64,000 bases of DNA from Mogibacterium sp. (GCA_017510505.1 JAFWNE010000023.1:21213-85212), one strand, 5' to 3'. Counted from the stretch's first letter, positions 4,194-55,826 are shown. The notes: generated from the sequence alone by a model not told the origin. A program made the numbers and translations.

Positions 4194-5195
4194 ATGAAAG
4201 TTTTTACAAGAGACTACAGGATAACAGGCGAATACCACCCTCTTTGGGGAGATTATTTCGATGGCATGGAGCCATGCGTATTGGACATAGAGGCTACCGG
4301 CCTTGACCGCAGCAGATGCAAGGCCGTGCTCATCGGTCTTTTGATGCACACGGACAAGGGCGTCACTATCACACAGTTTCTTGCGGAGAACCATTATGAA
4401 GAAGATAAGGTACTGGACGCCGCGATGGACTATCTTGAGAAAAACAACGCGGGCTATCTGGTGACATACAACGGCTGTGCCTATGACGTCCCTTTCCTGA
4501 ATGCGAGGCTGGATGCCAACTTCATGGGCAGACACATCGGGATGTATCATTTTGACCTGTACAGGTTCCTCTGCAAGTGTACGGATATGAGAAAACGCGT
4601 TGAAAGGATGAGCCAGATGTCCATAGAAGACCACTACGGCATATTCTCAGACCGCAGAGACACCATCACAGGTCGCGAAAGCGTTGCTCTATTTGATCAG
4701 TACGCTCTGTCCGGCAACAGTACGGTAGAAAAGATAATACTGACTCATAACCGGGAAGACGTGCTGCACCTTCACAGGCTTATGTATCTCACGCTTGCTG
4801 AGGTGCCTGATATCCATCAGGCACTGGCCGTTTACGGCCTCCCTGCCGCGGGCGGCAGGCTCAGCGTCAGACATACGATAAAAAGAGCTGCTTCAGGCAA
4901 AAAAGCGGACCCAGTCCTGAAGATATCAGGCGAACAGATAAAGGATCCTGTATCCTGCGCGTATTTCCCTGACGGAAACAGTCCTGTAACAGCTGTATTC
5001 AATTCACAGAGCCGCTCATTCGAGATAGATGTGCCTGTAAACACTCATCCGGAATCGTTGTTCATGGACACATCTCTCCTTGGCGCTGACGCGTTCAGGG
5101 ATGATCCGGACTGTGTCAACAACTACCTGATACTCAACGCGCGTACAACGAATCTTGTCTCACGCTATCTTGCTGAAAAGTATTACGATATGTAA
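4194..5195 (+). CDS. RNase H-like / 3'-5' exonuclease-fold protein (YprB-like)
   Basis: 333 aa. It contains the DIEATGLD acidic motif near the N-terminus, with later YNG..YDVPFL and H...D motifs typical of DEDD-type exonuclease-like proteins. No clear ribosome-binding site is present. Confidence 0.55.
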   Translation: MKVFTRDYRITGEYHPLWGDYFDGMEPCVLDIEATGLDRSRCKAVLIGLLMHTDKGVTITQFLAENHYEEDKVLDAAMDYLEKNNAGYLVTYNGCAYDVPFLNARLDANFMGRHIGMYHFDLYRFLCKCTDMRKRVERMSQMSIEDHYGIFSDRRDTITGRESVALFDQYALSGNSTVEKIILTHNREDVLHLHRLMYLTLAEVPDIHQALAVYGLPAAGGRLSVRHTIKRAASGKKADPVLKISGEQIKDPVSCAYFPDGNSPVTAVFNSQSRSFEIDVPVNTHPESLFMDTSLLGADAFRDDPDCVNNYLILNARTTNLVSRYLAEKYYDM

Positions 5196-5209
5196 AGTTT
5201 TCTTTACAT
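5190..5209. repeat. Palindromic motif, copy a: ATGTAAAG-TTTT-CTTTACAT
   Basis: Perfect 8-bp arms. The TAA inside the left arm is the stop codon of the 4194..5195 gene. Confidence 0.9.
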
Positions 5210-5277
5210 AATTGCGCATAATAAATGCTGCCCTTCTGAGGTGAACTAGTCAACAGAAAGTAGACAGTTTAAAAAAG

Positions 5278-6126
5278 TCATACAAAGCCCATTTCAGTCT
5301 TGTACTGGACTGGGCTTTTGTAGTGCAGTGCATAGGCTGGCCGCTCATTGTTGTAATAACTGATGTATTCTTTGATCATTTCTTCGGCGGAATCAAATCT
5401 CCTGTACCATCCTTCAGAGTAGATTTCATCTTTGATCCAGCCATTTATCGCTTCAATCACTGGGTTGTCAGTTGGAGTTCCTGCTCGCGACATTGAACGG
5501 ATTATGTTAGAATTCTTATGAGCGTTGAAGAACGCTTCGGAGGAATAGACAGATCCTTGGTCGGTGTGCAAAATGACGGGAAATGCCTGTTCCTTTGTTT
5601 TTTCCATCAAATCTTCCAAGCATCGGAAATACGGCCGTCTATCTCCAACAACATTAGTTATGTGACTAGAGATTATCTCATTGTTGAAAGCATCCAGAAG
5701 ATATGTCCACTCATAGCGGGCTCCCTTGTGCCTGATCATTGTCATATCCGAAGCTATAAGTTTCATCGGCGCGTCCACTTCCCATTTTCCTCTGACTAAA
5801 TTAGGGAATCGTTTATGCTCTTGCCCAAGCTGAGGACGACTCCAGTTGTAGTGAGTAACCTTCGCCTTTATCCCTGCAAACTTACAGCATTTGTGGGCCA
5901 GATTGTCTGAGAACAGCCATCCGGTTTCATTTCTAACCATTTGAGCCAGTCTATGGTATCCATATGATCTGTGCTTCTTATGCGCTCCGGCCAACAGTTC
6001 AGTGAGCACTTCTCGATCCTTCTCATAACGATTCTTTGTTCCTTTGCGTGCAGCCCACTTGTAATATCCGGATCTGTTTACGTTCATCTCACGGCACAGC
6101 TCTGCTACCGGATATTGTTCCCTCAA
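5278..6126 (-). CDS. IS3-family transposase OrfB (DDE integrase core), normally expressed as an OrfAB fusion
   Basis: 282 aa. It contains HTDQGSVYSS...TPTDNPVIEAINGWIKDE (DDE/rve type). Its reading frame stays open upstream back to the A7 slippery run in orfA. Confidence 0.9.
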   Translation of the reverse strand: MREQYPVAELCREMNVNRSGYYKWAARKGTKNRYEKDREVLTELLAGAHKKHRSYGYHRLAQMVRNETGWLFSDNLAHKCCKFAGIKAKVTHYNWSRPQLGQEHKRFPNLVRGKWEVDAPMKLIASDMTMIRHKGARYEWTYLLDAFNNEIISSHITNVVGDRRPYFRCLEDLMEKTKEQAFPVILHTDQGSVYSSEAFFNAHKNSNIIRSMSRAGTPTDNPVIEAINGWIKDEIYSEGWYRRFDSAEEMIKEYISYYNNERPAYALHYKSPVQYKTEMGFV

Positions 6127-6134
6127 TATGTCTA

Positions 6135-6554
6135 TTATTTGGAATTCAAGTCTTTTGTAGTAACGAATTCCTTGCCGGCACCAACTCCTTTCACTATATA
6201 TCCTTTTTTTAACCGTTCATTCTCTATCTGCAGTTTCTCAACCAACAGTTCAAGCCGTTCCTTCTCAGTCAGAGATTTGCTGCTATGGAGTGCAGAAAAA
6301 TGATTCCCCCGCCGAAGCTTCTCCGGATTCAATGCATCAATCCCGCCGCTTCTATACCGTCGAATCCAGGTTTCCAACGTTCCTTTTGGCACGCCTGAAT
6401 CTCTTGCTAACGTGCGTACAGGTATATGATCTTCCTCACACATGAGAACATATTTCAGTCTCTCCTCGTTGGTCCATTGCCTGTTCTTTCCGCCTTTTGC
6501 TCTTCCCATGAAACCACCTCCTTGAATAAATCCTAGCATAAGAAAAGTAGACAT
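6135..6554 (-). CDS. IS3-family transposase OrfA (helix-turn-helix)
   Basis: 139 aa. It has an HTH region (PVRTLARDSGVPKGTLETWIRRY) and a leucine-zipper-like C-terminus (LLVEKLQIENERLKKG). Confidence 0.88.
   Translation of the reverse strand: MSTFLMLGFIQGGGFMGRAKGGKNRQWTNEERLKYVLMCEEDHIPVRTLARDSGVPKGTLETWIRRYRSGGIDALNPEKLRRGNHFSALHSSKSLTEKERLELLVEKLQIENERLKKGYIVKGVGAGKEFVTTKDLNSK
6204..6210 (-). other. Programmed -1 ribosomal frameshift slippery run (A AAA AAA G) joining orfA to orfB
   Basis: The minus strand reads ttAAAAAAAgga (codons L-K-K-G of OrfA). Shifting -1 here gives an open frame KKRIYSERSWCRQGIRYYKRLEFQIIDILREQYP that runs into OrfB. The frame arithmetic is consistent: orfA first bases are 2 mod 3 and orfB first bases are 0 mod 3. 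Confidence 0.75.
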
Positions 6555-6627
6555 GCCTTTTTTAACATGTCTACTTTCATCTTACTAGTTCACCCTTCTG
6601 AGGCAGCATTTTGATTTGCATTCACTT

Positions 6628-7632
6628 TTATCCGTCTATTTTGTGGATGTCCGAGAATCCTCTTCCCACTCCCCATACGGACTTGACACTGATTACCGAA
6701 ACGAAGGACTTCGGATCTTCCTTGGCCAGGTGCCTTTTTATAAGAAAGCTCTCGCGTGGCGAGCAGAGTATCTTGAGCTGCTTTCTCTTGTCTCCTGTAT
6801 ACTCTCCGGTGATCTCAATACTTGAAACACCGCGGCCGAGTTCATTCATTATGAAATCGGTCAGAGCATCTGCATCACCAGGGATGATATCCAGCTCTAC
6901 TATCTTATTGCTGAGACCGTACATAACAGCCTCGCTTACTCTCATCGACATGTAAATGATGATTACAGCGTAGAGAGCAATATTTACTCCGAATACGAAC
7001 GCGCTGGCTATTACGATCAGGGAGTTGATCGCGAAAGTTATGTCGTTTATGCCAAGATGAGGCAGCCAGCGGAACTTGATGACCTTAGCGAGAGAATCGG
7101 TCCCGCCCGATGAGAAGCCGGCTCTGAACGTGAGTCCTCCAGAAATACCCATTACTACACCGCAGAATACCGAAACAAGGAAAAGGTCATCGCTCTTTAC
7201 GATAACTACATTATTGACTTCAAGTACGAACATCACGATCGGGTAAGTCAAGGACATCAGAAGTATCTTTCTGACCTCCTTCCACCCAAGAAATATCCAT
7301 ACTATCGCGGTTATGATAAGAGCCAAAGCATAGTAAACAAGCGAATAGTTCCAGTGTGTGTAGTTTTGTATGATCCTTGCGATACCTGTGATGCCGCCAA
7401 AAGTCAGCCCGTTTGGGATCATGATGGATACCGTCGCGAGCGAGCCCATTACAACTCCAAGAAGCGCCATCCCTATCTCACGTGCTCTGATCCGGAGCTT
7501 TGAATGTCCGTGAAATTCAGGGTCATGAAAATATCTGGCGTTTGCCTCCTTGTTTTCTGCGACCTCTTTCTCGAGCTTCCTGTCAAGGCTGCTCATAGCT
7601 ATATCTGCTTTTTTCTTTTCTTTATCACTCAT
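6628..7632 (-). CDS. YitT-family membrane protein (multi-pass membrane domain plus a DUF2179-like C-terminal domain), paralog 1
   Basis: 334 aa. It contains GGITGIARI, SGGTDSLAKVIKFRW and a C-terminal soluble domain, and is paralogous to 49717..50616. Confidence 0.75.
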   Translation of the reverse strand: MSDKEKKKADIAMSSLDRKLEKEVAENKEANARYFHDPEFHGHSKLRIRAREIGMALLGVVMGSLATVSIMIPNGLTFGGITGIARIIQNYTHWNYSLVYYALALIITAIVWIFLGWKEVRKILLMSLTYPIVMFVLEVNNVVIVKSDDLFLVSVFCGVVMGISGGLTFRAGFSSGGTDSLAKVIKFRWLPHLGINDITFAINSLIVIASAFVFGVNIALYAVIIIYMSMRVSEAVMYGLSNKIVELDIIPGDADALTDFIMNELGRGVSSIEITGEYTGDKRKQLKILCSPRESFLIKRHLAKEDPKSFVSVISVKSVWGVGRGFSDIHKIDG

Positions 7633-7644
7633 TTTTTATTGTGA

Positions 7645-8964
7645 TCATCCTTCCATGACAAAGGATGCTTCATACTCCTTGCCGAAAATGTCAACAACGA
7701 CAGCCTCAAAGCTGCCGCCCGAGATGAAGCTCATGCTTTCATCATCAGCGTCAAATACGTTTTTAGCCTCAAAGGTTCCGTCGTATTCGGGATCTATTAT
7801 CACATGGTCCGCAAACTGCAGTCTGTCAGCCTTCAGCGCGTTTTCTACATGTATGCGGTCCTTCATCTGCACTGATCCGGTATCTATGTCCGGCACCAGA
7901 TCGATGAGCCTGCACTTGTACAGGTCTCTTCCGTCCTCAAGACGGTCAACGCTCAGTATGGCTATGTCAGCCCTGCCCCTCTGAAGCTTGACCGGCTCTT
8001 GTCTCATGAATTCGAACTTCGCGCCGGCCTTTCTGAGCCTGCGCCTTGCCATCGAAGTCGCTATCTCCTCGCTGTCGCAGCCTATCCACCTTCTGCCGAG
8101 CATCTGGGCAGCCTCAAGCAGGCTTCCGCTTCCGCAGAAGAAATCGCCCGCGAGGTCGCCCTCTTCCGTCGACGCCAGAACAATGCGCTTCATGAGTTCA
8201 AGCGGTTTCTGAGTGGCGTAGCCTGTACGTTCGGACGAGGTTCGTCCTACCATGTCTATGCTCCAGACGTCCTTCATGTTTACGAGAGTGTACCAGCCGC
8301 CCTCGTCCTTGTACTCCGCGACGCCCCTGAACCTGTAAGGTTTGCGGTCTCTGTTATAGGACTTTTCCTTCGGAACGTCAAGATAATATTTTGAAGTTTT
8401 TGAATATACAAGGATGCTGTCGTGCTTTCTGGCGAAATGGCGCTTGCCTGATCCGCCCGACTTATACTGCCAGATGATCTCGTTGACGAAGTTCTTCTCT
8501 CCCATCAGCTCGTCAAGCACAAGCTTGATGTAATGCGACGAATGCCAGTCAAGGTGTATCCACATGAGACCGTCATCCGCCAGAAGATCCTTCATCAGCA
8601 GCAGGCGGACGGCCATGTTCTCAATATAGTATTCGAGGCTGCGGTCGAACTTGTCGTCGTATGCCAGATGGTGCACCTTGTGGCTGGCTCCGGCGCTGTC
8701 TTTTACGCTGACAGAGGCGTTGAAGCTTGAGCGCGTAAAGAAAGGCGGATCGATATAGATCAGCCTGAAAGCGCCCGCATAGCCCCTCGAGAGCAGTCCC
8801 TTCATGTATTCGAGGTTGTCGCCCAGGCACAGTTCGTTTGCACCTGTCATGCCGTCTTCTGCAAGTGAAGGAGAGCCATGCACTTCCTCGTACATGGCTC
8901 TGCCCTTTTTAAGTCCTTCAAGAATCTGTTCTGTCGTTGTCATATCAGTTGAGTACTTCGACAC
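7645..8964 (-). CDS. Site-specific DNA methyltransferase, amino-MTase beta class (N6-adenine or N4-cytosine), with a C-terminal extension of about 130 aa and unknown function
   Basis: 439 aa. Motif IV, IYIDPPFF, precedes the AdoMet motif I, FFCGSGSLLEAA; this order defines the beta class. No endonuclease gene is adjacent. Confidence 0.8.
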   Translation of the reverse strand: MSKYSTDMTTTEQILEGLKKGRAMYEEVHGSPSLAEDGMTGANELCLGDNLEYMKGLLSRGYAGAFRLIYIDPPFFTRSSFNASVSVKDSAGASHKVHHLAYDDKFDRSLEYYIENMAVRLLLMKDLLADDGLMWIHLDWHSSHYIKLVLDELMGEKNFVNEIIWQYKSGGSGKRHFARKHDSILVYSKTSKYYLDVPKEKSYNRDRKPYRFRGVAEYKDEGGWYTLVNMKDVWSIDMVGRTSSERTGYATQKPLELMKRIVLASTEEGDLAGDFFCGSGSLLEAAQMLGRRWIGCDSEEIATSMARRRLRKAGAKFEFMRQEPVKLQRGRADIAILSVDRLEDGRDLYKCRLIDLVPDIDTGSVQMKDRIHVENALKADRLQFADHVIIDPEYDGTFEAKNVFDADDESMSFISGGSFEAVVVDIFGKEYEASFVMEG

Positions 8965-9367
8965 CTTCGAATACGACGCCGATCATCTCTTCAAGCTCTG
9001 CGCTCACGCTGAGAACGAAGTCGATCCCGGATTCCTTCGAAATGATCTTGATCTTCTCAATGAAGCTCGGCAAAACGTCCAGAGCGAAATCTCTGTGTCT
9101 CATGATGCCGTCAAGGAAGATCGTTTCGATATCATTGTCAGAACTCATGATACCGAACAGGAATCCGATATACTCGTCCTCATTGGTGATGTGCGGAAAA
9201 TCCTCCATGCATACGACTCTGATCTTGTAGTCAAGGTCGTAGATGAGTCTTGAATTCTTGTTGATAAATACGATACTTCCTCTGGCTGTCTGGACAGTCT
9301 CATTCGCCAGCTCAATCATTCTTTTGGTCTTGCCGCTTCCTTTATGTCCAATCAATAATTTGACCAT
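8945..9367 (-). CDS. Small P-loop NTPase of unknown function
   Basis: 140 aa with Walker A GHKGSGKT. A strong ribosome-binding site (aaggggagg) lies 22 nt after the glyA stop. Its 3' end overlaps the methyltransferase start by 20 nt, which suggests translational coupling. Confidence 0.6.
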   Translation of the reverse strand: MVKLLIGHKGSGKTKRMIELANETVQTARGSIVFINKNSRLIYDLDYKIRVVCMEDFPHITNEDEYIGFLFGIMSSDNDIETIFLDGIMRHRDFALDVLPSFIEKIKIISKESGIDFVLSVSAELEEMIGVVFEGVEVLN

Positions 9368-9389
9368 AGGTCAGTACCTCCCCTTTAGT

Positions 9390-10737: not shown

Positions 10738-11970
10738 TTAATGATCCTTCATGAACAGGGTCCTAATTTCTCCGGCCAGATATATGGATCCGGTCGTCAG
10801 GATGCACTGAAAAGCCGAGTCCTTAGCGTATTCGTATGCCTCACGGGTCGACTCGAATACCATGCACCCGTGTCCGCATCCGGCGATGAGCTCGCCTATC
10901 CGCCCAGGATCTTCTGCTCTTTCATAATCCACGGCTGCTGCCGCGTAGGAGCATCCCTTGAGACCTCCCGTAAGTAATTGTACCATACGAACCGAATTTT
11001 TGTCTTTCATACAGCCAAAAATTACCAGCGTTCTTTTGATTTTATTTGTACGGGAGAATGCCTCATATGTCTTTACCAGCTCAGATATGGCGTCAGGATT
11101 ATGGGCTCCGTCTATGATGAAGACAGGCTCTTCACCCGGCTCATCATTCAGTATCTCGAATCTGCCCGGGAGCCAGGCATTTGCCAGGCCGTTTTCTATG
11201 GCTTCTTCGGACACTTCTATGCCTGCTGCCTTTATGGCTTCCACGGCTGTAGCTGCGTTCCTTATCTGATGCCCGCCTTTCATGGCCAGCTCATATTTCC
11301 TGTAGCTGTCTGCCACTTCCGACACGTCTATGAACTCGCTTCCGTTCTCAGCGGCCATGCGCCTGAATATGTTCTTGGTATTCATGTCGCCTGTCTGTGA
11401 AACGACCGGAACGCCCGGCTTTATGATGCCTGCCTTCTCTCGCGCTATCTTGAAGATGGTATTGCCGAGCTGGGCAGTGTGATCGAGCCCGACCTGAGTT
11501 ATGACGCTCACGAGAGGCTTTTCAAGGGTATTCGTTGAATCCAGCCTTCCGCCGAGTCCTGTCTCCAGGACTACATAGTCAGGCTGTTCCTTTGCAAAGT
11601 ACAGATAGGCCGCTGCCGTGTACACCTCAAAGACGGTCAGCTTGCCGTACTCGAGCCCGGCATTATGTAAAGTTTTCTTTACATCTTCCTCGACGGAATA
11701 TACTCTCTCCTTAAGCGAGTCAAGCTCCGCCTGCTCTATCATGTGGTGAGTGCCATCCCATATCTGCACTCTCTCGCATTCGTCCTCAAGATGCGGCGAA
11801 GTGAAAAGACCCACGCTGTATCCCGCCTCCTCAAGTATGGAAGCGGTCATCACCACGGTAGAGCCCTTTCCGTTGGTGCCTGCAATATGTATAGCCCTGA
11901 AGCCGGCTTCCGGATCGCCCAGAGCCGCCAGCAGAGCCTTCATTCTCTCAAGTCCGTCAAAGCTTGCCAT
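10738..11970 (-). CDS. folC: Folylpolyglutamate synthase / dihydrofolate synthase
   Basis: 410 aa with a Mur-ligase P-loop (HIAGTNGKGST). Its start shares a base with the valS stop, matching the conserved valS-folC arrangement. Confidence 0.9.
   Translation of the reverse strand: MASFDGLERMKALLAALGDPEAGFRAIHIAGTNGKGSTVVMTASILEEAGYSVGLFTSPHLEDECERVQIWDGTHHMIEQAELDSLKERVYSVEEDVKKTLHNAGLEYGKLTVFEVYTAAAYLYFAKEQPDYVVLETGLGGRLDSTNTLEKPLVSVITQVGLDHTAQLGNTIFKIAREKAGIIKPGVPVVSQTGDMNTKNIFRRMAAENGSEFIDVSEVADSYRKYELAMKGGHQIRNAATAVEAIKAAGIEVSEEAIENGLANAWLPGRFEILNDEPGEEPVFIIDGAHNPDAISELVKTYEAFSRTNKIKRTLVIFGCMKDKNSVRMVQLLTGGLKGCSYAAAAVDYERAEDPGRIGELIAGCGHGCMVFESTREAYEYAKDSAFQCILTTGSIYLAGEIRTLFMKDH
11665..11684. 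repeat. Palindromic motif, copy b: ATGTAAAG-TTTT-CTTTACAT, inside folC coding sequence
   Basis: The 20-mer is identical to copy a. On the minus strand it is read in frame as D-V-K-K-T-L-H-N (gat gta aag aaa act tta cat aat). Confidence 0.9.
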
Positions 11971-16270: not shown

Positions 16271-16303
16271 TCTCAAATTCCTTCGGTAACAGTGTTATCG
16301 TTA

Positions 16304-16321
16304 ATGTAAAGTTTTCTTTAC
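16304..16321. repeat. Palindromic motif, copy c (right arm shortened): ATGTAAAG-TTTT-CTTTAC
   Basis: It lies in the 48-nt gap between the potC stop and the folD start, about 34 nt upstream of the folD ATG. Confidence 0.8.
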
Positions 16322-16324
16322 TTT

Positions 16325-17116
16325 TTATGCTGCCCTTGCGTCTTTCAGATTGTTTGCCTTGTCCTGCCTGATGTTGGCGATCAGAAGCACAGCGAGCGCG
16401 ACCACGAATATGATGGTCGAAAGAGCGAAAAGGCTTGGCCTGATCCCGATCTTGACCTCGCTGTAAATGAGTGTCGAGATGGTATTTATGCCGGCTCCCC
16501 TTGTGAAGTATGTGATGATGAAATCATCTACAGACATCGTGAAGCTCAGAAGGAATCCCGACATTATGCCCGGCTTGAGTTCAGGCAATACTATCTTTCT
16601 GAAAGCGTATTTTTCAGTCGCTCCGAGATCGAGCGCGGCCTCATACAGCCTGTCGGTGTTCTTGTTTACGCGAGGCCTGACTGAAAGTATCACGTACGGT
16701 ATACAGAAGGTCGCGTGGCTGAAGAGTATGGTCATGTATCCGCGCGGCGCCTTTATCATTAGGAAGAACAGCATCAGCGCTATGCCCGTGACTATATCTG
16801 CATTCAGCATAGGGATGTTGTTGAATCCCAGCAGAACGTTCTGCGTGCGCGGCTTCATGGACGCCATTCCAAGAACCGCAAGCGTCCCCACGATGGTCGC
16901 TATCAGGGCTGCCAGAATGGCTATCGAGAACGTATTCACGATAGCGCCCATCATGAGCCTGCTCTGGAACAGCTCCGCGTACCAGTGCAGGCTGAAGCCG
17001 CCCCATACCGACATCGACTTCACATCGTTGAAAGAAAGCACGATAAGCGTCAGTATCGGCAGATACAGGAATAACATGATTATTAAAATATATATCCGTC
17101 CTAGTGTCTTTTTCAT
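16325..17116 (-). CDS. potC: Spermidine/putrescine ABC transporter permease
   Basis: 263 aa. It is a binding-protein-dependent transport permease with the motif EAALDLGATEKYAFRKIVLP. Confidence 0.85.
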   Translation of the reverse strand: MKKTLGRIYILIIMLFLYLPILTLIVLSFNDVKSMSVWGGFSLHWYAELFQSRLMMGAIVNTFSIAILAALIATIVGTLAVLGMASMKPRTQNVLLGFNNIPMLNADIVTGIALMLFFLMIKAPRGYMTILFSHATFCIPYVILSVRPRVNKNTDRLYEAALDLGATEKYAFRKIVLPELKPGIMSGFLLSFTMSVDDFIITYFTRGAGINTISTLIYSEVKIGIRPSLFALSTIIFVVALAVLLIANIRQDKANNLKDARAA

Positions 17117-17117
17117 G

Positions 17118-23953: not shown

Positions 23954-24051
23954 TGGCGGGAGTACGTGGGAATCGAACCCACCCGGGAGGCTTCTAACCC
24001 CCTGCAAACGGTTTTGAAGACCGCGAGGCACACCAGCACCTATCTACCCCC
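23954..24051 (-). tRNA. selC: tRNA-Sec (TCA)
   Basis: 98 nt. The reverse complement is gggggtagataggtgctggtgtgcctcgcggtcttcaaaaccgtttgcagggggttagaagcctcccgggtgggttcgattcccacgtactcccgcca. The anticodon loop is CUUCAAA, and it has a long variable arm and an extended acceptor stem. It lies directly upstream of selA. Confidence 0.88.
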
Positions 24052-38617: not shown

Positions 38618-38729
38618 AAACAGAAAATAATAAGTGAGCCGTTTTCACAAACGGCTCATTTTTTTTGCCGGTTTCTGTGATACAATCCTCTTGTACTTAG
38701 ATATAACAAACTATTGCGGAGGAATGAAG

Positions 38730-39875
38730 ATGAAAAAAGAAAGGATCCTCGTCATGAACCTCGGCTCCACTTCGAGCAAGATCGCGGTTTACGACGATGA
38801 CAAGGAAGTGTTCAACGACACCATACGCCACTCGACAGAAGAGCTCGCTCCTTTCGGAGACGTTGTAGAGCAGTTCGAATTCAGAAGAGACAAGATATTC
38901 GAATCCATGGAAAAAAACGGTGTTCCGGTCGACTCACTCACAGCCGCGGTATCAAGAGGCGGCAACATCATAGCCTGCCCTCACGGCGCCATTGCCATCG
39001 ATCAGGCAATGATAGACTACCTGACCAGGCCTGAGGATATGGCCAAGCACCCTTCGCTCATCGGAAGCATGATTGCCTTCGACCTCAATAAGGAGAAAGG
39101 CATCCCTGTATGCATATATGACGCGATAGGCACGGATGAGAAGATCCCTGTATGCAGAGTCAGCGGAGTGCCTGAACTCCCTCACTTCACCGTCGGCCAC
39201 ACGCTCAATACACGCGCCATGGCCATCAAGTGCGCAGAGGAAAAGCTCGGTAAGAGATTCGATGAGTGCACGTTCATCGTAGCGCATCTGGGTGGCGGCA
39301 GCTCTATCAGGCTGTACAAGGACGGAGTCAATATCGACAGCGCCAATGATGACGAAGGCAACTTCACGCCGGAGCGCGGAGGCGGAGTCGGCGCAAAGGG
39401 CCTCGTAGACCTCTGCTTCAGCGGCAAGTATTCGTATAAGGAAGCCATGAAGCTCTTCCACGGCAAGGGCGGACTCATCGCTCACCTCGGTACTGCAGAC
39501 GCGCGTGACGTAGAAAAGATGATCGATGACGGCGACGGCTACGCGGCCATAGTTTACGAAGCCATGTGCCTCAATGTCGCAAAGGATATCGCCAAACTAG
39601 CTGCTACTGTCTCCGGCAAGGTCGACAGGATAATCCTCACCGGCGGCATCTCCTATTCGAAGTATGTTGCCGATTATATCACTGAGCATGTCAGTTTCAT
39701 CTGCCCTGTCGAGGTCATGGCCGGCGAGTACGAGATGGAAGCTCTCGCAGCCGGCTGCCTCAGAGTTCTGCGCGGCGAAGAAAAGCTGCAGGACTTCGGT
39801 GAGATCGCAGCGACCGCAAAGGACCGCATCCGCATCTACCCGGGCGTTGAACCGTACACCGCTCCAAAGCGTTAA
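38730..39875 (+). CDS. buk: Butyrate kinase family (acetate/propionate kinase superfamily)
   Basis: It contains ILVMNLGSTSSKIAVYDD, HLGGGSS and GGISYS. The start is at 38730, 6 nt after a GGAGGA site. No phosphotransbutyrylase gene is adjacent. Confidence 0.8.
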   Translation: MKKERILVMNLGSTSSKIAVYDDDKEVFNDTIRHSTEELAPFGDVVEQFEFRRDKIFESMEKNGVPVDSLTAAVSRGGNIIACPHGAIAIDQAMIDYLTRPEDMAKHPSLIGSMIAFDLNKEKGIPVCIYDAIGTDEKIPVCRVSGVPELPHFTVGHTLNTRAMAIKCAEEKLGKRFDECTFIVAHLGGGSSIRLYKDGVNIDSANDDEGNFTPERGGGVGAKGLVDLCFSGKYSYKEAMKLFHGKGGLIAHLGTADARDVEKMIDDGDGYAAIVYEAMCLNVAKDIAKLAATVSGKVDRIILTGGISYSKYVADYITEHVSFICPVEVMAGEYEMEALAAGCLRVLRGEEKLQDFGEIAATAKDRIRIYPGVEPYTAPKR

Positions 39876-39879: not shown

Positions 39880-39899
39880 ATGTAAAGTCTTCTTTACAT
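39880..39899. repeat. Palindromic motif, copy d: ATGTAAAG-TCTT-CTTTACAT
   Basis: It starts 5 nt after the buk stop codon. Confidence 0.9.
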
Positions 39900-39912: not shown

Positions 39913-39943
39913 AAAACACGCTTCTTCAGGAAGCGTGTTTTTG
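39913..39943. terminator. Bidirectional intrinsic terminator between buk and the aminotransferase gene
   Basis: aaaacacgcttc-ttcag-gaagcgtgttttt. Confidence 0.8.
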
Positions 39944-39953: not shown

Positions 39954-39973
39954 ATGTAAAGTTATCTTTACGT
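39954..39973. repeat. Palindromic motif, copy e: ATGTAAAG-TTAT-CTTTACGT
   Basis: It has one mismatch in the right arm, and its last base is the first base of the reverse-strand stop codon (tta at 39973-39975). Confidence 0.85.
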
Positions 39974-41169
39974 TATATCAGATTGAATCTTTTTCCGAGA
40001 TTCATCCAGGATTCCTTTGAGTTCTGTATGGTCTCGTTCTTTCCACAGAAAGAAGCTCTTACCCAGCCCGGTCCGTTGAACGCGCTTCCCGGTGTGATCA
40101 GTATCCTCTCCTTCTTGGCTGCCGATACGAAATCATATTCGTTCTCTACCGGCGACTTGATCCACATGTAGAACGCGCCCTGAGGATAAAGCGCTTCAAG
40201 CCCTGCGCCGGTCACTATCTCATAAAGATCCTTTGCGTTTTTCTTGTAGTAATCAAGATCAGATCTCGCTTTAAGGCATCTTTCAACTATCAGTTCCTGT
40301 ATGGTCGGAGCATTCGTGCCTCCGAGCACCCTGCCTGCGACGACTAGAGCTTCACTTAGTTCAGCATGACCTTCAGCGCATTTCGGAACAGCCACATAGC
40401 CTATACGGTCGCCCGGCATCGAAAGTGATTTCGACCAGGAATATGCGATCAGCGAGTCAGCGTAGTAATCTCCCGGGAACGGAACATCACTGCCGTCATA
40501 TACCAGCTCTCTGTACGGTTCATCACAGATCAGATAAATGGTATGTCCGAACCTTTCCTCTGCCTCTCTCAGCACGTCCGCTACAGCGTCCAGGGCCTTT
40601 CTTGAATAGATCTTGCCCGTCGGGTTGTTAGGATTGTTGAGCATGACGCCCTTGACCTCCGGAACGAGGAGCTTTCTGAGAGCTTCTGCGTCAGGGTCGA
40701 AGCTCAGTTCATCATTTGCCGGGACCACGATGGTCTCTGCGCCCCAGTTACGAGCCCAGTTGGCATATTCGACAAAGTATGGCGCAAACACTACCAGCTT
40801 GTCGCCCGGATCGAAGATGCACTTGTTGATCATGTTTATGGAATATGCCGCTCCGCACGACATGATTATGTGATCCACATCGAAATAGTCGCCGCCTGCC
40901 CTCTCGTTTAGGTCATCAGCTATCGCCTTTCTTGTGGATTCGTAGCCGGCGTTAGACGGATACCCGTGAACATAGAGCGGATCGAGTTCGTGATTGATCT
41001 CATCTATTGCGTCAAAAACTTCCTGTGGCGGCTTAAGTCCCGGGTTTCCTATGCTGAAATCATAAACGTTTTCAGCACCATAGACCTTAGCCATTCTCTT
41101 GCCTTCCTCGAACATAGCTCTTATCTGTGAGCTACCCGCGAGGAAAGGCTCCATTGCTTTGGAAATCAT
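39973..41169 (-). CDS. Class I/II PLP-dependent aminotransferase (AspC/AlaT-like), paralog 1
   Basis: It contains SIGNPG, NNPNNPTGK and YSWSKSLSMPGDRIGY. The start is at 41169 (aggagggatttcaATG). It is paralogous to 61273..62466. Confidence 0.85.
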   Translation of the reverse strand: MISKAMEPFLAGSSQIRAMFEEGKRMAKVYGAENVYDFSIGNPGLKPPQEVFDAIDEINHELDPLYVHGYPSNAGYESTRKAIADDLNERAGGDYFDVDHIIMSCGAAYSINMINKCIFDPGDKLVVFAPYFVEYANWARNWGAETIVVPANDELSFDPDAEALRKLLVPEVKGVMLNNPNNPTGKIYSRKALDAVADVLREAEERFGHTIYLICDEPYRELVYDGSDVPFPGDYYADSLIAYSWSKSLSMPGDRIGYVAVPKCAEGHAELSEALVVAGRVLGGTNAPTIQELIVERCLKARSDLDYYKKNAKDLYEIVTGAGLEALYPQGAFYMWIKSPVENEYDFVSAAKKERILITPGSAFNGPGWVRASFCGKNETIQNSKESWMNLGKRFNLI

Positions 41170-41371
41170 TGAAATCCCTCCTGAGCAAATGCATATAAAA
41201 CACTTATTTATCAAGGCCGCGCGGGCCCTTTCTTCTTATCATAATTGTACCACATATGACCTTGCAAATAATCCCTTTTTGGTCGATAATAAGTACAGTA
41301 AACAAGCGCTGCCGCAGCATGTGCGGCGGACGTTTCCTGATGCTGTTTATTCAAAATTTGGAGGAATACAA

Positions 41372-48935: not shown

Positions 48936-48949
48936 TTTTCTCGCCTCCT

Positions 48950-49318: not shown

Positions 49319-49388
49319 TCTTTACTTCCTTTCTGCTGTCCGGCAGCTTTTATCGGCCGTGTATTGTGTTACGTATATACGTTTGTTT

Positions 49389-49424
49389 TGTATTATTGTA
49401 TTAACTACTTAGTACAATAATACA
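49389..49424. promoter_or_regulatory. Inverted repeat TGTATTATTGTA-N12-TACAATAATACA (candidate YtrA-type operator)
   Basis: It has perfect 12-bp arms and lies 70-105 nt upstream of the GntR-family gene. Confidence 0.5.
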
Positions 49425-49525
49425 CACTTGCTTCCCTGTCAAGACCCTTCTGAAAAAAATTATTAAAAAAGAATAGCCTTTATGGCTATTCCCCTAAAAC
49501 TTTTTCTCTCTGTAAAGCGCCGGCG

Positions 49526-49699
49526 CTATTTATCCAGGTCGTTGCCGTTTCTGTTGTACCTGATAAAGGAATAGATGCCAAGCATCAGCCAGATGACCGA
49601 TGCTGCGAGCCAGCCCCACTGATGCTTTCCGAAGAACACCACAAGGCATGCGATGAACGCTATAAGGTATAATGGCGCTAAGTATTTGTTGTCTACCAT
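49526..49699 (-). CDS. Small two-TM membrane protein (57 aa); below the ORF-track cutoff
   Basis: My translation is MVDNKYLAPLYLIAFIACLVVFFGKHQWGWLAASVIWLMLGIYSFIRYNRNGNDLDK. It starts 17 nt after the YitT paralog 2 stop, and its ribosome-binding site is weak. Confidence 0.4.
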   Translation of the reverse strand: MVDNKYLAPLYLIAFIACLVVFFGKHQWGWLAASVIWLMLGIYSFIRYNRNGNDLDK

Positions 49700-49716
49700 G
49701 TTCTTCTCACTTTCTT

Positions 49717-50616: not shown

Positions 50617-50619
50617 CTG

Positions 50620-51624
50620 TTATTTCCAATCTACCTGATCGCGGTAGCTTCCGAACGGTGTTACAGGAATGTATACCTGAACATCGAATCCGAACTCTCC
50701 ATAAGTATCATATACCGGCTTCATTGTGAGGCATAATGCCCAGCCGCCGTCAAAGTTAAGCTGGATCGTGTCTCTGGATACCTCGCCGTATTTGCCTGTG
50801 GCGAATCTGACTTCAAGAAGTTCCGAAGGGAATCCTGTTTTAGGTGTCATCAGATTTGTGTTGTTTGGCATGCGTCCGAGACCGCCGTGGGCATTCACGC
50901 AGCCTATGCGCGTCACCTCGAATTCTTCTATAGGCTTGATGAAATAATAGTCTATCGTGCCGTAGAAGTAATCGTAAAGTTTCTGAGCGGCTTCAGGATG
51001 GAACTTGAATATGCGCGGGAATTCGCGGCTGAATGCCTGAAGCATAGGTGTGATGAGCGATCCGTATATGAACTTTTCGTCCTTGATCAGCTCTGCCCAG
51101 TTTTCACTGTCGCGCGGAGCAATGTTCAAGAGGATATCATTCACATCATCGAAATACTCGTTTGAGCACGGTACGCCGAAAATACGGTCGCCGAAATCAT
51201 CGATACCGTTGAATGAATTCTTGATCACATCCTTGTCCATGTCGAGCTCGCGGTCCGCGACCGGCAAAGCGGAAAGGATCCTGGCATCGTTCTTTACGGA
51301 TATGGAGAAACGCCAGTCAAGGTCAGGGCGCTCAAGCAGGATCTCTCCGAATGAGTCCCTTTCGAGTTTTCTGTCCAGATAGTTTAAACGTATGCAAAGC
51401 GGTTCTCCGCCGGTTTCGAAAATATATGGTTCGTGCGATACAATGCGCTCGATCGCAGGAGCAGCCTGTCTGTATGCCAGCTCTTTTTCTTCATCAGTCT
51501 CTTCCCATAGATTGTAGAAGTACTGAGCCTCTTCATCATCTCTTATGAAATACGGTACATTCTCTCTTTCAAGGATGGCTTTGAATGCTTTCACACATGC
51601 TTCAACAAGGATCTTGTTTATCAT
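50620..51624 (-). CDS. Hypothetical protein with a PD-(D/E)XK-like nuclease signature (possibly a HaeIII-like restriction endonuclease family)
   Basis: 334 aa. It contains ERPDLDWRFSISVKND (D...S-x-K), then DFGDRIFGVPCSNEY and LYDYFYGTIDYYF. The resemblance to type II endonuclease families is from memory only and has not been searched. Confidence 0.3.
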   Translation of the reverse strand: MINKILVEACVKAFKAILERENVPYFIRDDEEAQYFYNLWEETDEEKELAYRQAAPAIERIVSHEPYIFETGGEPLCIRLNYLDRKLERDSFGEILLERPDLDWRFSISVKNDARILSALPVADRELDMDKDVIKNSFNGIDDFGDRIFGVPCSNEYFDDVNDILLNIAPRDSENWAELIKDEKFIYGSLITPMLQAFSREFPRIFKFHPEAAQKLYDYFYGTIDYYFIKPIEEFEVTRIGCVNAHGGLGRMPNNTNLMTPKTGFPSELLEVRFATGKYGEVSRDTIQLNFDGGWALCLTMKPVYDTYGEFGFDVQVYIPVTPFGSYRDQVDWK

Positions 51625-51712
51625 ATTGAACTCCTCCTTTGGGAATTAGAACTCTTTATGTGATACCCTAAGGGCCAAAATAATCCGTATATATTATATC
51701 CTATTCAAAACT

Positions 51713-51738
51713 TAAAAAAAACGGCCTGAGCCGTTTTT
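51713..51738 (-). terminator. Intrinsic terminator after tRNA-Glu
   Basis: On the minus strand it reads aaaacggc-tcag-gccgtttt followed by a T-run. Confidence 0.7.
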
Positions 51739-51740
51739 CG

Positions 51741-51815
51741 TGGTAGCGCATCAGGGAATCGAACCCTGGATTCCGCCGTGAGAGGGCGACGTCTTGACCT
51801 CTTGACCAATGCGCC
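51741..51815 (-). tRNA. tRNA-Glu (CTC)
   Basis: The reverse complement is ggcgcattggtcaagaggtcaagacgtcgccctctcacggcggaatccagggttcgattccctgatgcgctacca. The anticodon loop is CUCUCAC. Confidence 0.8.
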
Positions 51816-51925
51816 ACATTTTTTACATGCGCAAGTAGTATTATAAACAAAAGGCCCCTTCTTGTCTACAAAATTATGAAAAAAGTTGTCAAGTTTCATT
51901 AAGTCTTATATGGTATCATTCTAAT

Positions 51926-52954
51926 ATGGAAAAGAAAAAAATACTCATTATTCATACCGGCGGCACCATAGGCATGGTTCCCACGGAAAACGGTTTTGCT
52001 CCTAAGCAGGGAGTGCTTCTGGAGGAACTTAAGAACATCCGTGACCTCAGCTCTCCTGATATGCCCGTATGGGATCTCATAGAATTCGAGCCCCTTCTTG
52101 ATTCGACCAATATCAGATATGAGCAATGGAATTCCATAGCTGACTCGATAGCCCTGTATTATGATAAATACGACGGATTTGTAGTGCTTCACGGGACCGA
52201 CACTCTGGCCTACAGCGCTTCTGCCCTTTCATTCATGCTTGAGGGGCTGGACAAGCCTGTCGTTTTTACGGGAGCACAGATCCCGCTTTGCGAACTCAGG
52301 AGTGACGGGCGCGACAATCTGATCACTTCGATGATGATCGCGGCCGACGGAGTCATTCGTGAAGTAAGCCTGTGCTTTGGAGACTCGATACTGCGCGGCA
52401 ACCGTGCCATCAAGTACTCGGCTGACGGCATGATGGCCTTCACATCACCTAACTTCAACAAGCTCGCTGATGCAGGGATCACGATTGAGTATAACCATGC
52501 TTCGATAAACGAATATGAAAAGACAAGTCTGCATTCCGGGCCCCTTAATATCGTCAAACTGAATGAAAGCCGTATAGCCGTCATCAAGATCGTTCCGGGC
52601 ATACAGTTCGACATCTTTGAGCCTATAATGCTTGAATCGCTTGATGGACTCGTGCTTGAGACTTTCGGCAAAGGCAATATACCTGATTATGACACTGCTC
52701 TTTCGCGTCTCATTTCGGAGGCCAGCAGATGCGGTACTATCGTCGTGGTCTGCACACAGTGTCCAGCGGGTACGGTGAGTCTCGGCACTTACAAGGCAGG
52801 TTCGGCTCTTGTGGAAGCAGGCGCAGTCAGTGGAGGCAACATGACCACCGAAGCTGTGATCACAAAGCTCACATACCTGCTAAGCAAAGGCCTGCCAAAG
52901 GAAGATATCCGGAGGCTCATGCAGACCGACCTGAGAGGCGAGCTTACAAAATAA
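51926..52954 (+). CDS. ansA: L-asparaginase, type I (cytoplasmic)
   Basis: 342 aa. It contains ILIIHTGGTIGM, HGTDTLAYSA and GAQIP. Confidence 0.9.
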   Translation: MEKKKILIIHTGGTIGMVPTENGFAPKQGVLLEELKNIRDLSSPDMPVWDLIEFEPLLDSTNIRYEQWNSIADSIALYYDKYDGFVVLHGTDTLAYSASALSFMLEGLDKPVVFTGAQIPLCELRSDGRDNLITSMMIAADGVIREVSLCFGDSILRGNRAIKYSADGMMAFTSPNFNKLADAGITIEYNHASINEYEKTSLHSGPLNIVKLNESRIAVIKIVPGIQFDIFEPIMLESLDGLVLETFGKGNIPDYDTALSRLISEASRCGTIVVVCTQCPAGTVSLGTYKAGSALVEAGAVSGGNMTTEAVITKLTYLLSKGLPKEDIRRLMQTDLRGELTK

Positions 52955-52969
52955 GGATATTTGCGCAAT

Positions 52970-53005
52970 AAAAAGATTCCCGTCAAACGGGAATCTTTTT
53001 GTTTT
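52970..53005. terminator. Bidirectional intrinsic terminator between ansA and glpK
   Basis: aaaagattcccg-tcaaa-cgggaatctttttgtttt. Confidence 0.8.
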
Positions 53006-54493
53006 CTATTCTTCACGGAACGCGATCGTTGCTTTGACCGCCCTGTGCCATCCGTTCAGTTTTTCTTTTCTCTCCTTTTCACCGAGAGAAGGCTTGAACG
53101 TCATTGCGATCTCCTTGCTTGCAACGATATCTGCAAGGCTGTCGTAATACCCTACCGCAAGGCCTGCCAGATATGCCGCTCCGAGCGACGTGGATTCGAT
53201 GGAAGCGTATCTCACGATATCCACATCCGAGATATCAGCCTGGAACTGCATCAGCAGGTTGTTCATTGCAGCGCCGCCGTCGACCTTGAGCGAGGTGATC
53301 TCCTTGCCGGTATCTGCTTTCATGGCTGCAAGGAGGTCTTCATTCTGGTAAACCAGAGACTGGAGGGTCGCCCTTACGATATGCTCACGCGTGGTTCCCC
53401 TTGTGATACCGAACATGGATCCTCTTGCTTCAGGATCCCAGTAAGGAGCGCCCAGTCCCACAAAGGCCGGAACTACGAATACTCCGCCTGCATCAGGGAC
53501 CTGATTGGCGAGTTCCTCAGACTCCGACGCATCACGGAAGAACCGCAGCTGGTCTCTCAGCCACTGAACAGCTGCTCCGCATACGAATACCGAACCCTCG
53601 AGAGCGTATGTGACCTTTCCGTCGAGGCCCCACGCGATGGTGGTGAGCAGTCCGTTCTTGGACATTACAGGCTTGTCTCCCGTATTAAGCAGCAGGAAGT
53701 TGCCCGTTCCGTATGTGCTCTTTACGTCTCCCTCATTGAAGCACGCTTCGCCAAAGAGAGCGGCCTGCTGGTCTCCGGCAGCCCCCGTGATAGGTATCGG
53801 ACCTCCGAATATCTCGTCGATGGTGTCGCCGTAGTATGATGAGCACTCCACCGGTTCAGGCAGCATGCACATCGGGATATTCAGGAGTCCGCAGAGCTCC
53901 TCGTCCCACTTCAGCGTATTGATGTCAAAAAGCATGGTCCTGCAGGCATTCGAGTAATCTGATACGTGTACCTTGCCGCCCGTCAGCTTCCAGATGAGCC
54001 AGCTTTCTATCGTTCCGAACAGCAGCTCGCCCTTCTCTGCCCTGGTTCTTATGCCCGGAACGTTCTCCAGTATCCAGGCCAGCTTTGTGCCGCTGAAGTA
54101 AGGGTCTGCGAGAAGTCCCGTCTTCTGCCTGATCATTTCTTCATGCGGTTTCAGCTTCGCGGCATAATCGGCCGTTCTGCGGCACTGCCATACTATGGCG
54201 TTGTATACAGGGATGCCCGTCTTCCTGTCCCATACTACGGTCGTCTCTCTCTGATTTGTTATGCCAATGGCGGCGATATTCTTGTATGTCAGTCCCGCCT
54301 TGAGCAGCGCCTCCTGAGCGGTACCCATCTGGGAAGCCCATATCTCCATCGCGTCGTGTTCTACCCATCCTTCATGCGGAAATATCTGGGTGAACTCTCT
54401 CTGGACCACGGATATCATGTTGCCCGCTCTGTCGTAGATGATAGTTCTTGAGCTTGTAGTACCCTGATCGAGCGCCATTATGTATTTTTCCAT
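53006..54493 (-). CDS. glpK: Glycerol kinase
   Basis: 495 aa. It contains [23 protein letters not shown] and [12 protein letters not shown]. Confidence 0.95.
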
Positions 54494-54507
54494 GCTTCTG
54501 TCCTTTC

Positions 54508-55728
54508 CTATACAAACAGTGACATTATTTGGTTGCTTATATCTATGCCCTGCTCTGTGAGCTTAAGGCCTTTGTCATCTATTATGAGAAGACCGCGCCT
54601 TACATAGTCTTCCGCCTCCTCCTTCGCTTCCGCGAATATGCGCCAGAACGCGGCCTTAGGATCCTCATGCATCAGTCCTTCGGCGCATCTCAAATAGGCG
54701 TCTATCGCTTCCTCGTAGCTGATGCCTTCCGCGCGCCTCAGTCCCGTGAATACCGCCTCGCTTATGTTGTCGAAGCTGCTGTTCAGATGGTCTTCTTCGA
54801 GAGGTATTTCGATGCGGCCGCCTTCTTCAGGCAGCTTCGCGAAAGCCTCTATGTATGCCTCTATATCCGATATGTTCTTATACCTGCGTCCATCCATGAA
54901 ACCGCTCGCCCCAAGGCCGACGCCTATGTAGTCGGACATGTCCCAGTAAAGGCTGTTATGGCGCGATCTGAATCCCGGCTTAGCGAAATTGCTTATCTCA
55001 TAATGCTCATAGCCGGCTTCCCTCAGCACCCTGCAGATCTCATGGTATGTCCGTCTGTCTTCTTCATCCGGCACCTCAGTCAGCTCACCTGCCTCCGCCA
55101 TGTCACCGAAAGGCGTCCCCTCTTCTATCTGCAGGCTGTAGCAGGATATATGTTCAGGATCCAGCCCGAGTATCCTTTCAAGATCGCTCAGGGCATCCTC
55201 AGTAGTCTCTCCCGGTATAGAAAACATGAGATCGAGATTGACATTGTCAAAGCCTTTTCGCCTTATGAGCTCCATGTCCCTGACAACGTTCTCAGCGGTG
55301 TGTATGCGGCCCATGTAATGCAGCCTGTCGTTGTCCATCGCCTGGACGCCCATGGACAGCCTGTTGAAACCCATGAACCTGTATGCCTGCAGCTTGGCAA
55401 GCATGACTCCGTCCTTGCGCCCCAGAGTCGCCGGATTGGCCTCGATGGTTATCTCAGCACCTTCCTTTACCCTGAACGACTTGCCGACAGCGTGCATTAT
55501 GTCGCGCATCTGCGAAATGTCCAGCACTGACGGAGTTCCGCCTCCGACATATACGCTGTCGATCTCCGGTTGGCCCAGCTGCTCTCCCCTGTATGTGATC
55601 TCGTTCACAAGAGCGTCGGTGTATTCCTTCCGCGGCGAAGTCTCTGCGTCGAAAGACAGGAAAGCGCAGTAATTGCACTTCCTGACACAGAAAGGTATGT
55701 GAATATAAAGTCCTGTCTTTTTTATCAT
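54508..55728 (-). CDS. hemW: Radical SAM heme chaperone HemW (HemN-like, coproporphyrinogen oxidase-like)
   Basis: 406 aa. It contains [17 protein letters not shown] and YVGGGTPS. Its position after lepA is conserved. Confidence 0.88.
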
Positions 55729-55739
55729 TATCAGTCGAT

Positions 55740-55759
55740 ATGTAAAGTATCCTTTACAT
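55740..55759. repeat. Palindromic motif, copy f: ATGTAAAG-TATC-CTTTACAT
   Basis: It lies 12 nt upstream of the hemW ATG. Confidence 0.9.
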
Positions 55760-55774
55760 TATTGTGTCGTTAGT

Positions 55775-55794
55775 ATGTAAAGTAATCTTTACAT
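55775..55794. repeat. Palindromic motif, copy g: ATGTAAAG-TAAT-CTTTACAT
   Basis: It is the second unit of the tandem array, offset 35 nt from copy f. Confidence 0.9.
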
Positions 55795-55806
55795 ATCTGC
55801 ATCAAA

Positions 55807-55826
55807 ACGTAAAGTGTTCTTTACAT
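55807..55826. repeat. Palindromic motif, copy h: ACGTAAAG-TGTT-CTTTACAT
   Basis: It is the third unit, offset 32 nt from copy g. It has one mismatch in the left arm and ends 10 nt from the lepA stop. Confidence 0.85.

Follow-up and report, generated by a model that had tools for sequence, protein, structure and literature searches.

A family of dispersed 20-bp palindromes in Mogibacterium-like Clostridia that shares its arms with operator-like sites of CylR2-like modules

The 64,000-nt stretch of DNA analysed here (Mogibacterium sp., GCA_017510505.1, JAFWNE010000023.1:21213-85212; referred to below as the window) comes from a Mogibacterium-like bacterium of gut or rumen and contains eight copies of a 20-bp palindrome, ATGTAAAG-N4-CTTTACAT. 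Together with the copies at orthologous loci of relatives, represented by metagenome-assembled genomes (MAGs), they form a family of dispersed 20-bp dyads that is spread across the lineage of Mogibacterium-like (Anaerovoracaceae-type) Clostridia. Judged from base identity, the motif appears to be the consensus site of a widespread family of helix-turn-helix (HTH) proteins. We tentatively propose, with a probability of about 0.45, that the palindrome is a dispersed dyad resembling the repetitive extragenic palindromes (REP), and that it is maintained as the site of a dimeric CylR2-type Cro/C1 (HTH_3) protein. Dispersed palindromic repeats have received much study in Proteobacteria, those of gut and rumen Clostridia almost none.

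Results

A sharply defined family of palindromes

The copies in the window are the following (strands are those of the neighbouring genes):

Copy 1, 5190..5209: exact, spacer TTTT; its ATG-TAA forms the last codon and the stop of an RNase_H_2/YprB-like gene (4194-5195, + strand).
Copy 2, 11665..11684: exact, spacer TTTT; in frame in folC (10738-11970, - strand), where it encodes D-V-K-K-T-L-H-N in a loop of variable length.
Copy 3, 16304..16323: one mismatch, at position 19 (CTTTACTT); flanked by the potC stop (16325-16327) at 1 nt and by the folD start (16276) at 27 nt.
Copy 4, 39880..39899: exact, spacer TCTT; begins 4 nt past the stop of the butyrate kinase gene (buk, 38634-39875, + strand).
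Copy 5, 39954..39973: one mismatch, at position 19 (CTTTACGT); its last base lies within the stop codon of a convergent aminotransferase gene (39973-41214, - strand).
Copy 6, 55740..55759: exact, spacer TATC; the array member closest to hemW, 11 nt from its ATG (55728).
Copy 7, 55775..55794: exact, spacer TAAT; central member of the lepA-hemW array.
Copy 8, 55807..55826: one mismatch, at position 2 (ACGTAAAG); 9 nt from the lepA stop (55836).

These are the eight positions listed in a first-pass annotation of the DNA, and the count of five exact and three one-mismatch copies far exceeds the background: in dinucleotide-preserving shuffles of the window 0.00 exact copies and 0.03 copies with at most two mismatches are expected. 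When up to five mismatches were allowed, the eight copies had none or one, copies with two or three mismatches were not found in the window, and the background started at four to five; there were no degenerate relics. A chance origin of the copies is ruled out by the shuffles and by this sharp mismatch spectrum. Every ATGTAAAG 8-mer of the window is part of a palindrome copy, lone half-sites being absent, and the density is about one copy per 8-10 kb. The family is real and sharply defined.

The spacers in the window are TTTT (in three copies, as had been noted before), TCTT, TTAT, TATC, TAAT and TGTT. Seven of the eight copies have a stop or start codon at a distance of 0-11 nt, those at 5190 and 39954 sharing bases with the stop codon, which agrees with the earlier assignment of seven copies to gene ends; the remaining one is the in-frame copy in folC. 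If the relatives are included, the gene-end copies lie 0-16 nt from stop codons. Copies 6-8 (55740-55826) occupy the 107-nt spacer between lepA and hemW.

The window and the loci of relatives yielded a pooled set of 37 copies, a number that overstates the sample since orthologous copies are not independent; the relatives' loci were picked around window sites, so copy densities in them are biased. Nine of the 37 deviate from the consensus arms, all at positions 1, 2 or 19, and each is changed on one arm only, with no compensatory change. The flanks of the 37 copies are weakly A/T-biased, and a conserved tetranucleotide of the GTAG type was not found in them. Literature searches for the palindrome sequence and for DUF2178 returned nothing useful, and no description of the palindrome family was found in the literature searched.

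The same dyad upstream of CylR2-like modules

A scan for the exact pattern in one genome per prokaryotic species gave at least 119 loci (L001-L119). At about 64 of the 119 listed loci the dyad immediately precedes an operon for two proteins, a Cro/C1 HTH_3 protein of 65-78 amino acids and a small membrane protein of 130-145 amino acids, in either gene order, and at about 55 of the 119 a second near-copy is found 18-54 bp away, mostly at 37-46 bp. These module loci span Bacillota, Pseudomonadota, Spirochaetota, Chloroflexota, Patescibacteria and other phyla. Examples are:

L015, 753-1461: module.
L030, 5599-6282: module.
L077, 3909-4603: module.

The consensus of 93 module sites, oriented by the HTH gene, is ATGTAAAG-YWWR-CTT(T/G)ACAT, with arms identical to those of the window motif. 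The G variant occurs only in the promoter-proximal arm, which then reads CTTGACAT, a -35-like box, towards the operon, and in the paired sites the first copy overlaps the -35-like TTGACA. Paired sites of this kind would be the anatomy expected of an autoregulated promoter with two operators. As a practical by-product, ATGT(A/C)AAG-YWWR-CTT(T/G)ACAT can be put forward as a candidate family-wide operator consensus for CylR2/CylR1-like modules; no report of such an operator was found in the literature searched.

The HTH protein of the modules is closest to the PbsX-family regulator of PDB entry 9k3w (4e-16), followed by CylR2 of Enterococcus faecalis (1utx/2xiu, 4e-12); the CylR1-like membrane protein has a weak match to DUF2178. 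The target of CylR2, which works with the small membrane protein CylR1, is an inverted repeat in the cytolysin promoter (PMC3709268). In front of cylR1, an E. faecalis plasmid carries the dyad TTTTGTCAAGTG-T-CACTTGACAAAA, with the half-site TGTCAAG. The first-pass annotation had matched the palindrome to no described regulator box, which was reasonable except for this resemblance to the CylR2 half-site. Its suggestion of a site for a dimeric DNA-binding protein is supported, given that the 16 arm bases equal those of operator-like pairs at CylR2-like modules of many phyla and that the arms are conserved without compensation. The known boxes of Rex, cre, TnrA/GlnR, PadR, NtcA, CRP/FNR, PlcR, WalR, parS, NBS and Ter presumably each differ from the palindrome in spacing or bases.

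Turnover among relatives

Orthologous loci of relatives were retrieved by way of HemW and FolC homologues; among metagenomic strains there are more than 50 HemW/FolC variants with 97-99% identity. Between lepA and hemW the window species has three copies (L120-127, L140), L128 (HemW 83% identical) has two, and L130/131 (78%) have an array of six with a period of 33-35 bp; copies are lacking in L129 (80%), with a spacer of 10 nt, and in L132 (72%). The linkers within these arrays cannot be aligned across species and the arms are intact. The potC-folD copy is present in L133 and L134, and absent from L135, with a 3-nt gap, and from L136, where the two genes overlap by 4 nt. At the YitT/RNase_H_2 junction of L134 the copy constitutes the entire gap between the convergent genes and overlaps a stop codon; without a copy, this junction contains an ordinary terminator in L135 and nothing in L136. 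The buk/aminotransferase junction carries copies in the window and a terminator only in L132.

Further loci of related organisms came from a metagenome scan for adjacent exact pairs. In L139 and L143 arrays lie in co-directional junctions, against the upstream stop, and in L146 a copy overlaps the stop of a nifS-like gene by its ATG-TAA, as at 5190. At position 4270 of L142 the stem is lengthened by G-C pairs and followed by a T-tract, giving a terminator-like hairpin. Across the family the array period is 30-36 bp, with linkers of 10-16 nt.

Copy number and presence vary between related species, and REP-like turnover is supported. These variations, together with the arrays, the gene-end positions and the in-frame copies described below, speak for the earlier idea of a hairpin resembling REP or miniature inverted-repeat transposable elements. 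As to whether the motif recurs at orthologous loci of close relatives, the answer is yes for the folC copy (L133-L136), and the intergenic copies are variably present or absent.

Two side observations concern the surroundings of the copies. The hemW start of the window (55728-55740) lies 11 nt past copy 6 with no recognisable Shine-Dalgarno sequence between them, and the same holds for L128 and L130; L132, which has no copies, has GGAGGA upstream of hemW. The 27 nt between copy 3 and folD (16277-16303, TAACGATAACACTGTTACCGAAGGAA...) contain a small imperfect inverted repeat, CGATAAC-ACT-GTTACCG, and are kept in the three species with the copy (window species, L133, L134) and absent where the copy is absent; copy 3 and this stretch may together be one inserted unit.

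In-frame copies and constraint at the nucleotide level

Copies inside genes are not confined to the window. The folC gene of L137 has two in-frame copies with a 36-nt period, and hemW of L142 has three, two of which read C-K-x-x-F-T and one D-V-K-K-T-L-H-N, the FolC peptide. The HemW segment with two of these copies is 8 amino acids longer, and one copy replaces a segment of equal length, adding none. Two copies were found inside hemW of 'Candidatus Crickella equi' (L075) and one inside cbiD of a rumen Clostridiales MAG (L022). Across folC, hemW and cbiD the intragenic copies occupy both open frames, and FolC homologues vary in length by 7-14 residues exactly at the copy-bearing loop.

L133, L134, L135 and L136 have the folC copy at the same nucleotide position as the window (start at about nt 287); across these species FolC identity goes down to about 75%. 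In these five species its arms are identical at 16 of 16 positions (15 of 16 in L135), six third-codon positions included; in the well-conserved first 95 codons of folC, third-codon identity between the window and L133-L136 is 41-60%. The motif is kept despite a D-to-N replacement (GAT to AAT). By these comparisons the folC copy is held at the nucleotide level across species. The one-arm variants, which are never compensatory, and the absence of degenerate copies show that it is the sequence itself, not base pairing, that is maintained, and they argue against neutral decay of a dead insertion.

Spacer polarity

All eight window spacers begin with T on the + strand and, as the first-pass annotation had observed, end with T or C. 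This rule does not extend to the relatives: in the window orientation L130 has CGTA twice and TTAG once. When the 37 copies were oriented by synteny or local strand composition, the spacer consensus on the purine-rich strand (gene-sense, presumably leading) was A-A-W-A, with a purine at position 4 in all 37 and at position 1 in 30. In the window and at most of the other sampled loci the A-rich spacer is on the strand rich in G and A; exceptions are the intragenic copies of L022 and L075 and some mixed spacers. In the arrays the spacers are A-rich on one common strand, so the units are arranged head-to-tail and do not alternate.

The two copies behind + strand genes, at 5190 and 39880, share the bias of the DNA strand and therefore have a U-rich loop in their own mRNAs. 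An explanation at the level of the DNA strand is favoured over one at the level of the transcript because these two copies keep the strand bias; the informative cases number two or three. The polarity tied to the chromosome that had been suggested earlier is found as a strand asymmetry, one that is not separable from strand composition.

Hairpins, terminators and promoters

As hairpins the copies are weak, with -4.4 to -7.0 kcal/mol against -16.2 kcal/mol for the terminator between copies 4 and 5, and none of the eight is followed by a U-tract, as had already been remarked. That terminator is listed here:

39913..39941: ordinary intrinsic terminator, bidirectional; its hairpin (-16.2 kcal/mol) is flanked by A/T tracts.

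It is outside the repeat family, copies 4 and 5 being additional to it. The palindrome is ruled out as an intrinsic terminator by its weak stem, the lack of a U-tract and the real terminators beside copies. It was also considered as a promoter, as the arms contain TTTACA, yet this is not followed by an acceptable -10 box; neither a credible promoter nor a credible terminator was found at the copies, the arrays included. A search for known RNA families gave no Rfam match at the copies, the only matches in the window being tRNAs and tRNA-Sec.

Discussion

A proposed site for an HTH_3 dimer

In several respects the palindrome behaves like REPs and bacterial interspersed mosaic elements (BIMEs): it is found right behind stop codons and at operon junctions, forms short arrays, is gained and lost, and occasionally lands in frame in tolerant loops. 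Unlike ordinary REPs, its copies are kept almost perfect, and the folC copy has been held across species. We propose that the element acts as duplex DNA and that each copy would be a high-affinity site for a CylR2-type HTH_3 dimer; the invariant cores GTAAAG and CTTTAC sit one helical turn apart. Protein bound at gene ends might mark or insulate the boundaries of transcription units, or it might simply preserve and multiply its sites. New copies would arise mainly by local duplication beside existing ones. This reading is favoured because of the identity with the operator consensus, the perfect copies without relics and the conserved orthologous copy. Whereas the family, its positions, its turnover, the nucleotide-level constraint and the identity with the module operator are observations, we infer from them that an HTH dimer binds in the window organism and that binding has any function at boundaries.

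Several points weigh against this proposal. A CylR2-like or XRE-type gene was not found in the window or in the approximately 330 kb of relatives' loci; the only regulators in the window are one LysR-type and one GntR-type protein, and a homologue search with an Alkaliphilus XRE protein returned seven proteins, none from Mogibacterium. The window-type spacer is the asymmetric A-A-W-A, as opposed to the symmetric Y-W-W-R of the module operators, and the spacing of the cyl dyad is 1 bp longer than that of the module operators. A symmetric dimer on duplex DNA leaves the asymmetry of the spacer unexplained; this is a hint of a step that involves single-stranded DNA. Repressors do not usually act at 3' ends or inside open reading frames (ORFs). 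Finally, the copy counts are those of the window and the relatives' loci.

If the reader protein is found, the family would offer a tractable case of a transcription-factor site turning into a genome-wide repeat, and of the domestication of a repeat. Standard REP biology leaves unexplained the near-perfect copies, the conservation in folC, the in-frame copies in several essential genes, the strand-tied spacer and the operator identity.

Alternative explanations

The palindrome could be a selfish single-strand hairpin, of the REP/REPIN type or like the palindrome-associated elements (PATE) of IS200-type transposons, mobilised by a Y1/HUH transposase encoded elsewhere, its binding as a duplex being incidental. 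The enzyme would recognise the hairpin on the lagging-strand template and place further copies beside old ones and at new gene ends. Arrays, gain and loss between species, the extragenic bias and the in-frame insertions are all compatible with such an element, and the strand-tied A-rich loop, kept at 5190 and 39880, fits a replication-strand-specific step; a further parallel is the betaproteobacterial 20-mer within a longer conserved repeat whose flanks perhaps form a larger palindrome (see below). A Y1 transposase was, however, found neither in the window, where the sole transposase belongs to an IS3 element, nor in the approximately 330 kb of relatives' loci. There is no GTAG-like flanking tetranucleotide, there are no degenerate relics, and the array spacers have one orientation instead of alternating. 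The perfect orthologous copy in folC, where synonymous sites are near saturation, is unexpected for a selfish copy under no selection. On balance we consider this explanation unlikely, though it has to be taken seriously; it and the HTH-site reading could both hold, a mobile repeat having perhaps been domesticated.

It is improbable, though conceivable, that the copies are part of a genome-wide set of strand-polarised sites for an abundant CylR2-like HTH protein with a chromosomal role, perhaps in the punctuation or insulation of transcription units or linked to replication. If so, selection on the sites would be strong enough to bring them into ORFs and to keep them there across genera, and they would make up a new type of nucleoid or boundary site among the Firmicutes, with the operator of a quorum-type repressor as its origin.

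As an element at the RNA level, the stem-loop past the stop codon would protect 3' ends, direct the processing of cistrons or bind an RNA-binding protein. Copies do abut stop codons and sit in co-directional operon junctions, the loop is A-rich on the sense strand for most of them, and the L142 copy extended to a terminator-like hairpin with a T-tract could be read in the same way. However, the stem is weak and the variants break its pairing without compensation, the two copies behind + strand genes have, contrary to all others, a U-rich loop in the mRNA, and real terminators stand beside copies that match no Rfam family. Conservation inside folC, 950 nt from the 3' end of the gene, would remain unexplained. 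The stabiliser of mRNA 3' ends proposed by the first-pass annotation is accordingly a weak candidate, both in hairpin energy and in a spacer bias that follows the DNA strand, and we judge an RNA element to be distinctly improbable.

A conventional regulon, in which each copy is an operator for the adjacent downstream gene (hemW, folD and others), is very improbable. Three copies are just upstream of hemW and one is 27 nt upstream of folD, and the motif equals a repressor operator elsewhere. Against this, four of the six sites are between convergent genes or inside an ORF, no credible promoter is present at the arrays, copy number varies freely, and at orthologous junctions of relatives there are neither copies nor any real spacer (10 nt or 3 nt).

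We give hardly any credence to molecular drive, in which a signal for DNA uptake or self-recognition, comparable to the DNA uptake sequences (DUS) and uptake signal sequences (USS) that occur as pairs at gene ends in Neisseria and Haemophilus, writes the motif into coding and non-coding DNA: copies at gene 3' ends and inside ORFs at poorly conserved protein segments, the L142 hemW copy substituting a segment of equal length and the conservation of the motif across related species would suit it, but half-sites never occur alone in the window, known uptake sequences are far denser, the window showed no competence genes, and Firmicutes are not known to take up DNA in a sequence-specific manner.

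Comparison with known repeats and operators

The closest parallel in behaviour is offered by the REP/BIME elements of Proteobacteria and their RAYT transposases (Nunvar 2010, PMC2817692; Bertels & Rainey 2011, PMC3116915). Like these, the palindrome is short, mostly extragenic (at 3' ends and operon junctions), clustered at regular spacing, lineage-specific and variable in copy number and presence. With 20 nt and eight copies in 64 kb it falls within the 20-40 nt of a repeated REP/BIME unit, and seven of the eight window copies are extragenic, the exceptions to this placement being in folC, hemW and cbiD. It is unlike them in its perfect, AT-rich, weak 8-bp stem, in lacking a GTAG-type tetranucleotide, alternating orientation and degenerate copies, and in having in-frame ORF copies, an orthologous copy conserved across species and a host among the Clostridia. 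A RAYT gene flanked by repeats was not found in the window or in the approximately 330 kb of relatives' loci.

Rickettsia palindromic elements (RPE) are reportedly 100-150 bp long, lie in frame in genes and degrade with time. The palindrome resembles them as a repeat placed in frame in conserved genes and tolerated as an extra peptide segment; it differs in being 20 bp long (five to seven times shorter), without conserved flanks, mostly outside genes and kept near-perfect. In Neisseria, dRS3/NIME repeats and DUS pairs are 20-bp dyads that occur intergenically, in mosaic arrays and as inverted pairs at gene ends. Intergenic scatter and mosaic arrays of 20-bp dyads are common to both; here the linkers, at 10-16 nt, are much shorter, nothing connects the repeats with phage integration or uptake, and there are no single half-sites.

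With the CylR2 operator (IR1, cytolysin locus) the palindrome shares the half-site TGT(A/C)AAG of the cyl promoter dyad, and the module proteins resemble the CylR1/CylR2 pair in that each CylR2-like HTH_3 protein is partnered with a small membrane protein. Unlike the CylR2 operator, the window copies are not beside such a gene, do not overlap a promoter, are many, and have an asymmetric A-rich spacer.

Occurrences of the dyad in other groups

In betaproteobacterial MAGs (Polaromonas and others), ccaaaATGTAAAGTCGACTTTACATtttgg is present in several scattered copies, embedded in a longer conserved repeat with flanks that may make up a larger palindrome; these copies may be an independent expansion of the dyad. 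The loci are:

L032, 437 and 7127: two copies, which bracket a type I restriction-modification island (hsdM to hsdR).
L034, 2044 and 5472: two copies.
L040, L104, L053, L002, L008 and L050: further loci.

In genomes of the Streptococcus mitis group (L011, 7215-7234; also L048, L099 and further loci of this group) the space between the stop codon of htrA and the start of parB (spo0J) holds one exact copy; this operon-junction copy may be due to chance or to a related use. L044 encodes a 548-amino-acid protein (5188-6834) in which HTH_3 is fused to a lipase-like C-terminal domain. Its gene contains an exact copy (6484), and a one-mismatch copy lies upstream (6935); HTH_3 proteins using the dyad would therefore come in other architectures as well.

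Other features of the window

The window is ordinary chromosomal core of the Clostridia type, with valS-folC-glyA, potABC-folD, selenocysteine genes, thr/asd/hom, buk and rpsT-lepA-hemW, and with dnaK/dnaJ beyond. Proteins 98-100% identical to those encoded here carry the NCBI name Mogibacterium sp. MAG. The GC skew stays negative over the whole length, and the - strand carries most of the genes. One insertion sequence (IS) was recognised:

5240-6594: IS3-family element, with OrfA at 6135-6554, OrfB at 5278-6126 and inverted repeats at 5240-5281 and 6553-6594.

Its insertion point is the loop of a bidirectional terminator hairpin (ATGCTGCC...GGCAGCAT) that separates the YprB-like gene from the YitT gene, and CCCTTCTGAGG is apparently duplicated on either side of the element. 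Targeting of the palindrome by IS3 was rejected, as the element lies in the loop of this separate hairpin, 30 nt from the copy at 5190. The exact OrfA protein was found at one locus only, in five contigs.

At 7645-9367 a gene for a 140-amino-acid protein without a family match is followed by one for an N6/N4 DNA methyltransferase (PF01555). The pair is kept downstream of glyA in most relatives, and L136 has the 140-amino-acid gene without the methyltransferase. A HaeIII-type restriction endonuclease gene is at 50620-51624, with no methyltransferase called beside it. The tRNA genes of the window comprise a cluster of six at 1314-1880, tRNA-Sec at 23958-24051 beside the selenocysteine genes, and one more at 51744-51815.

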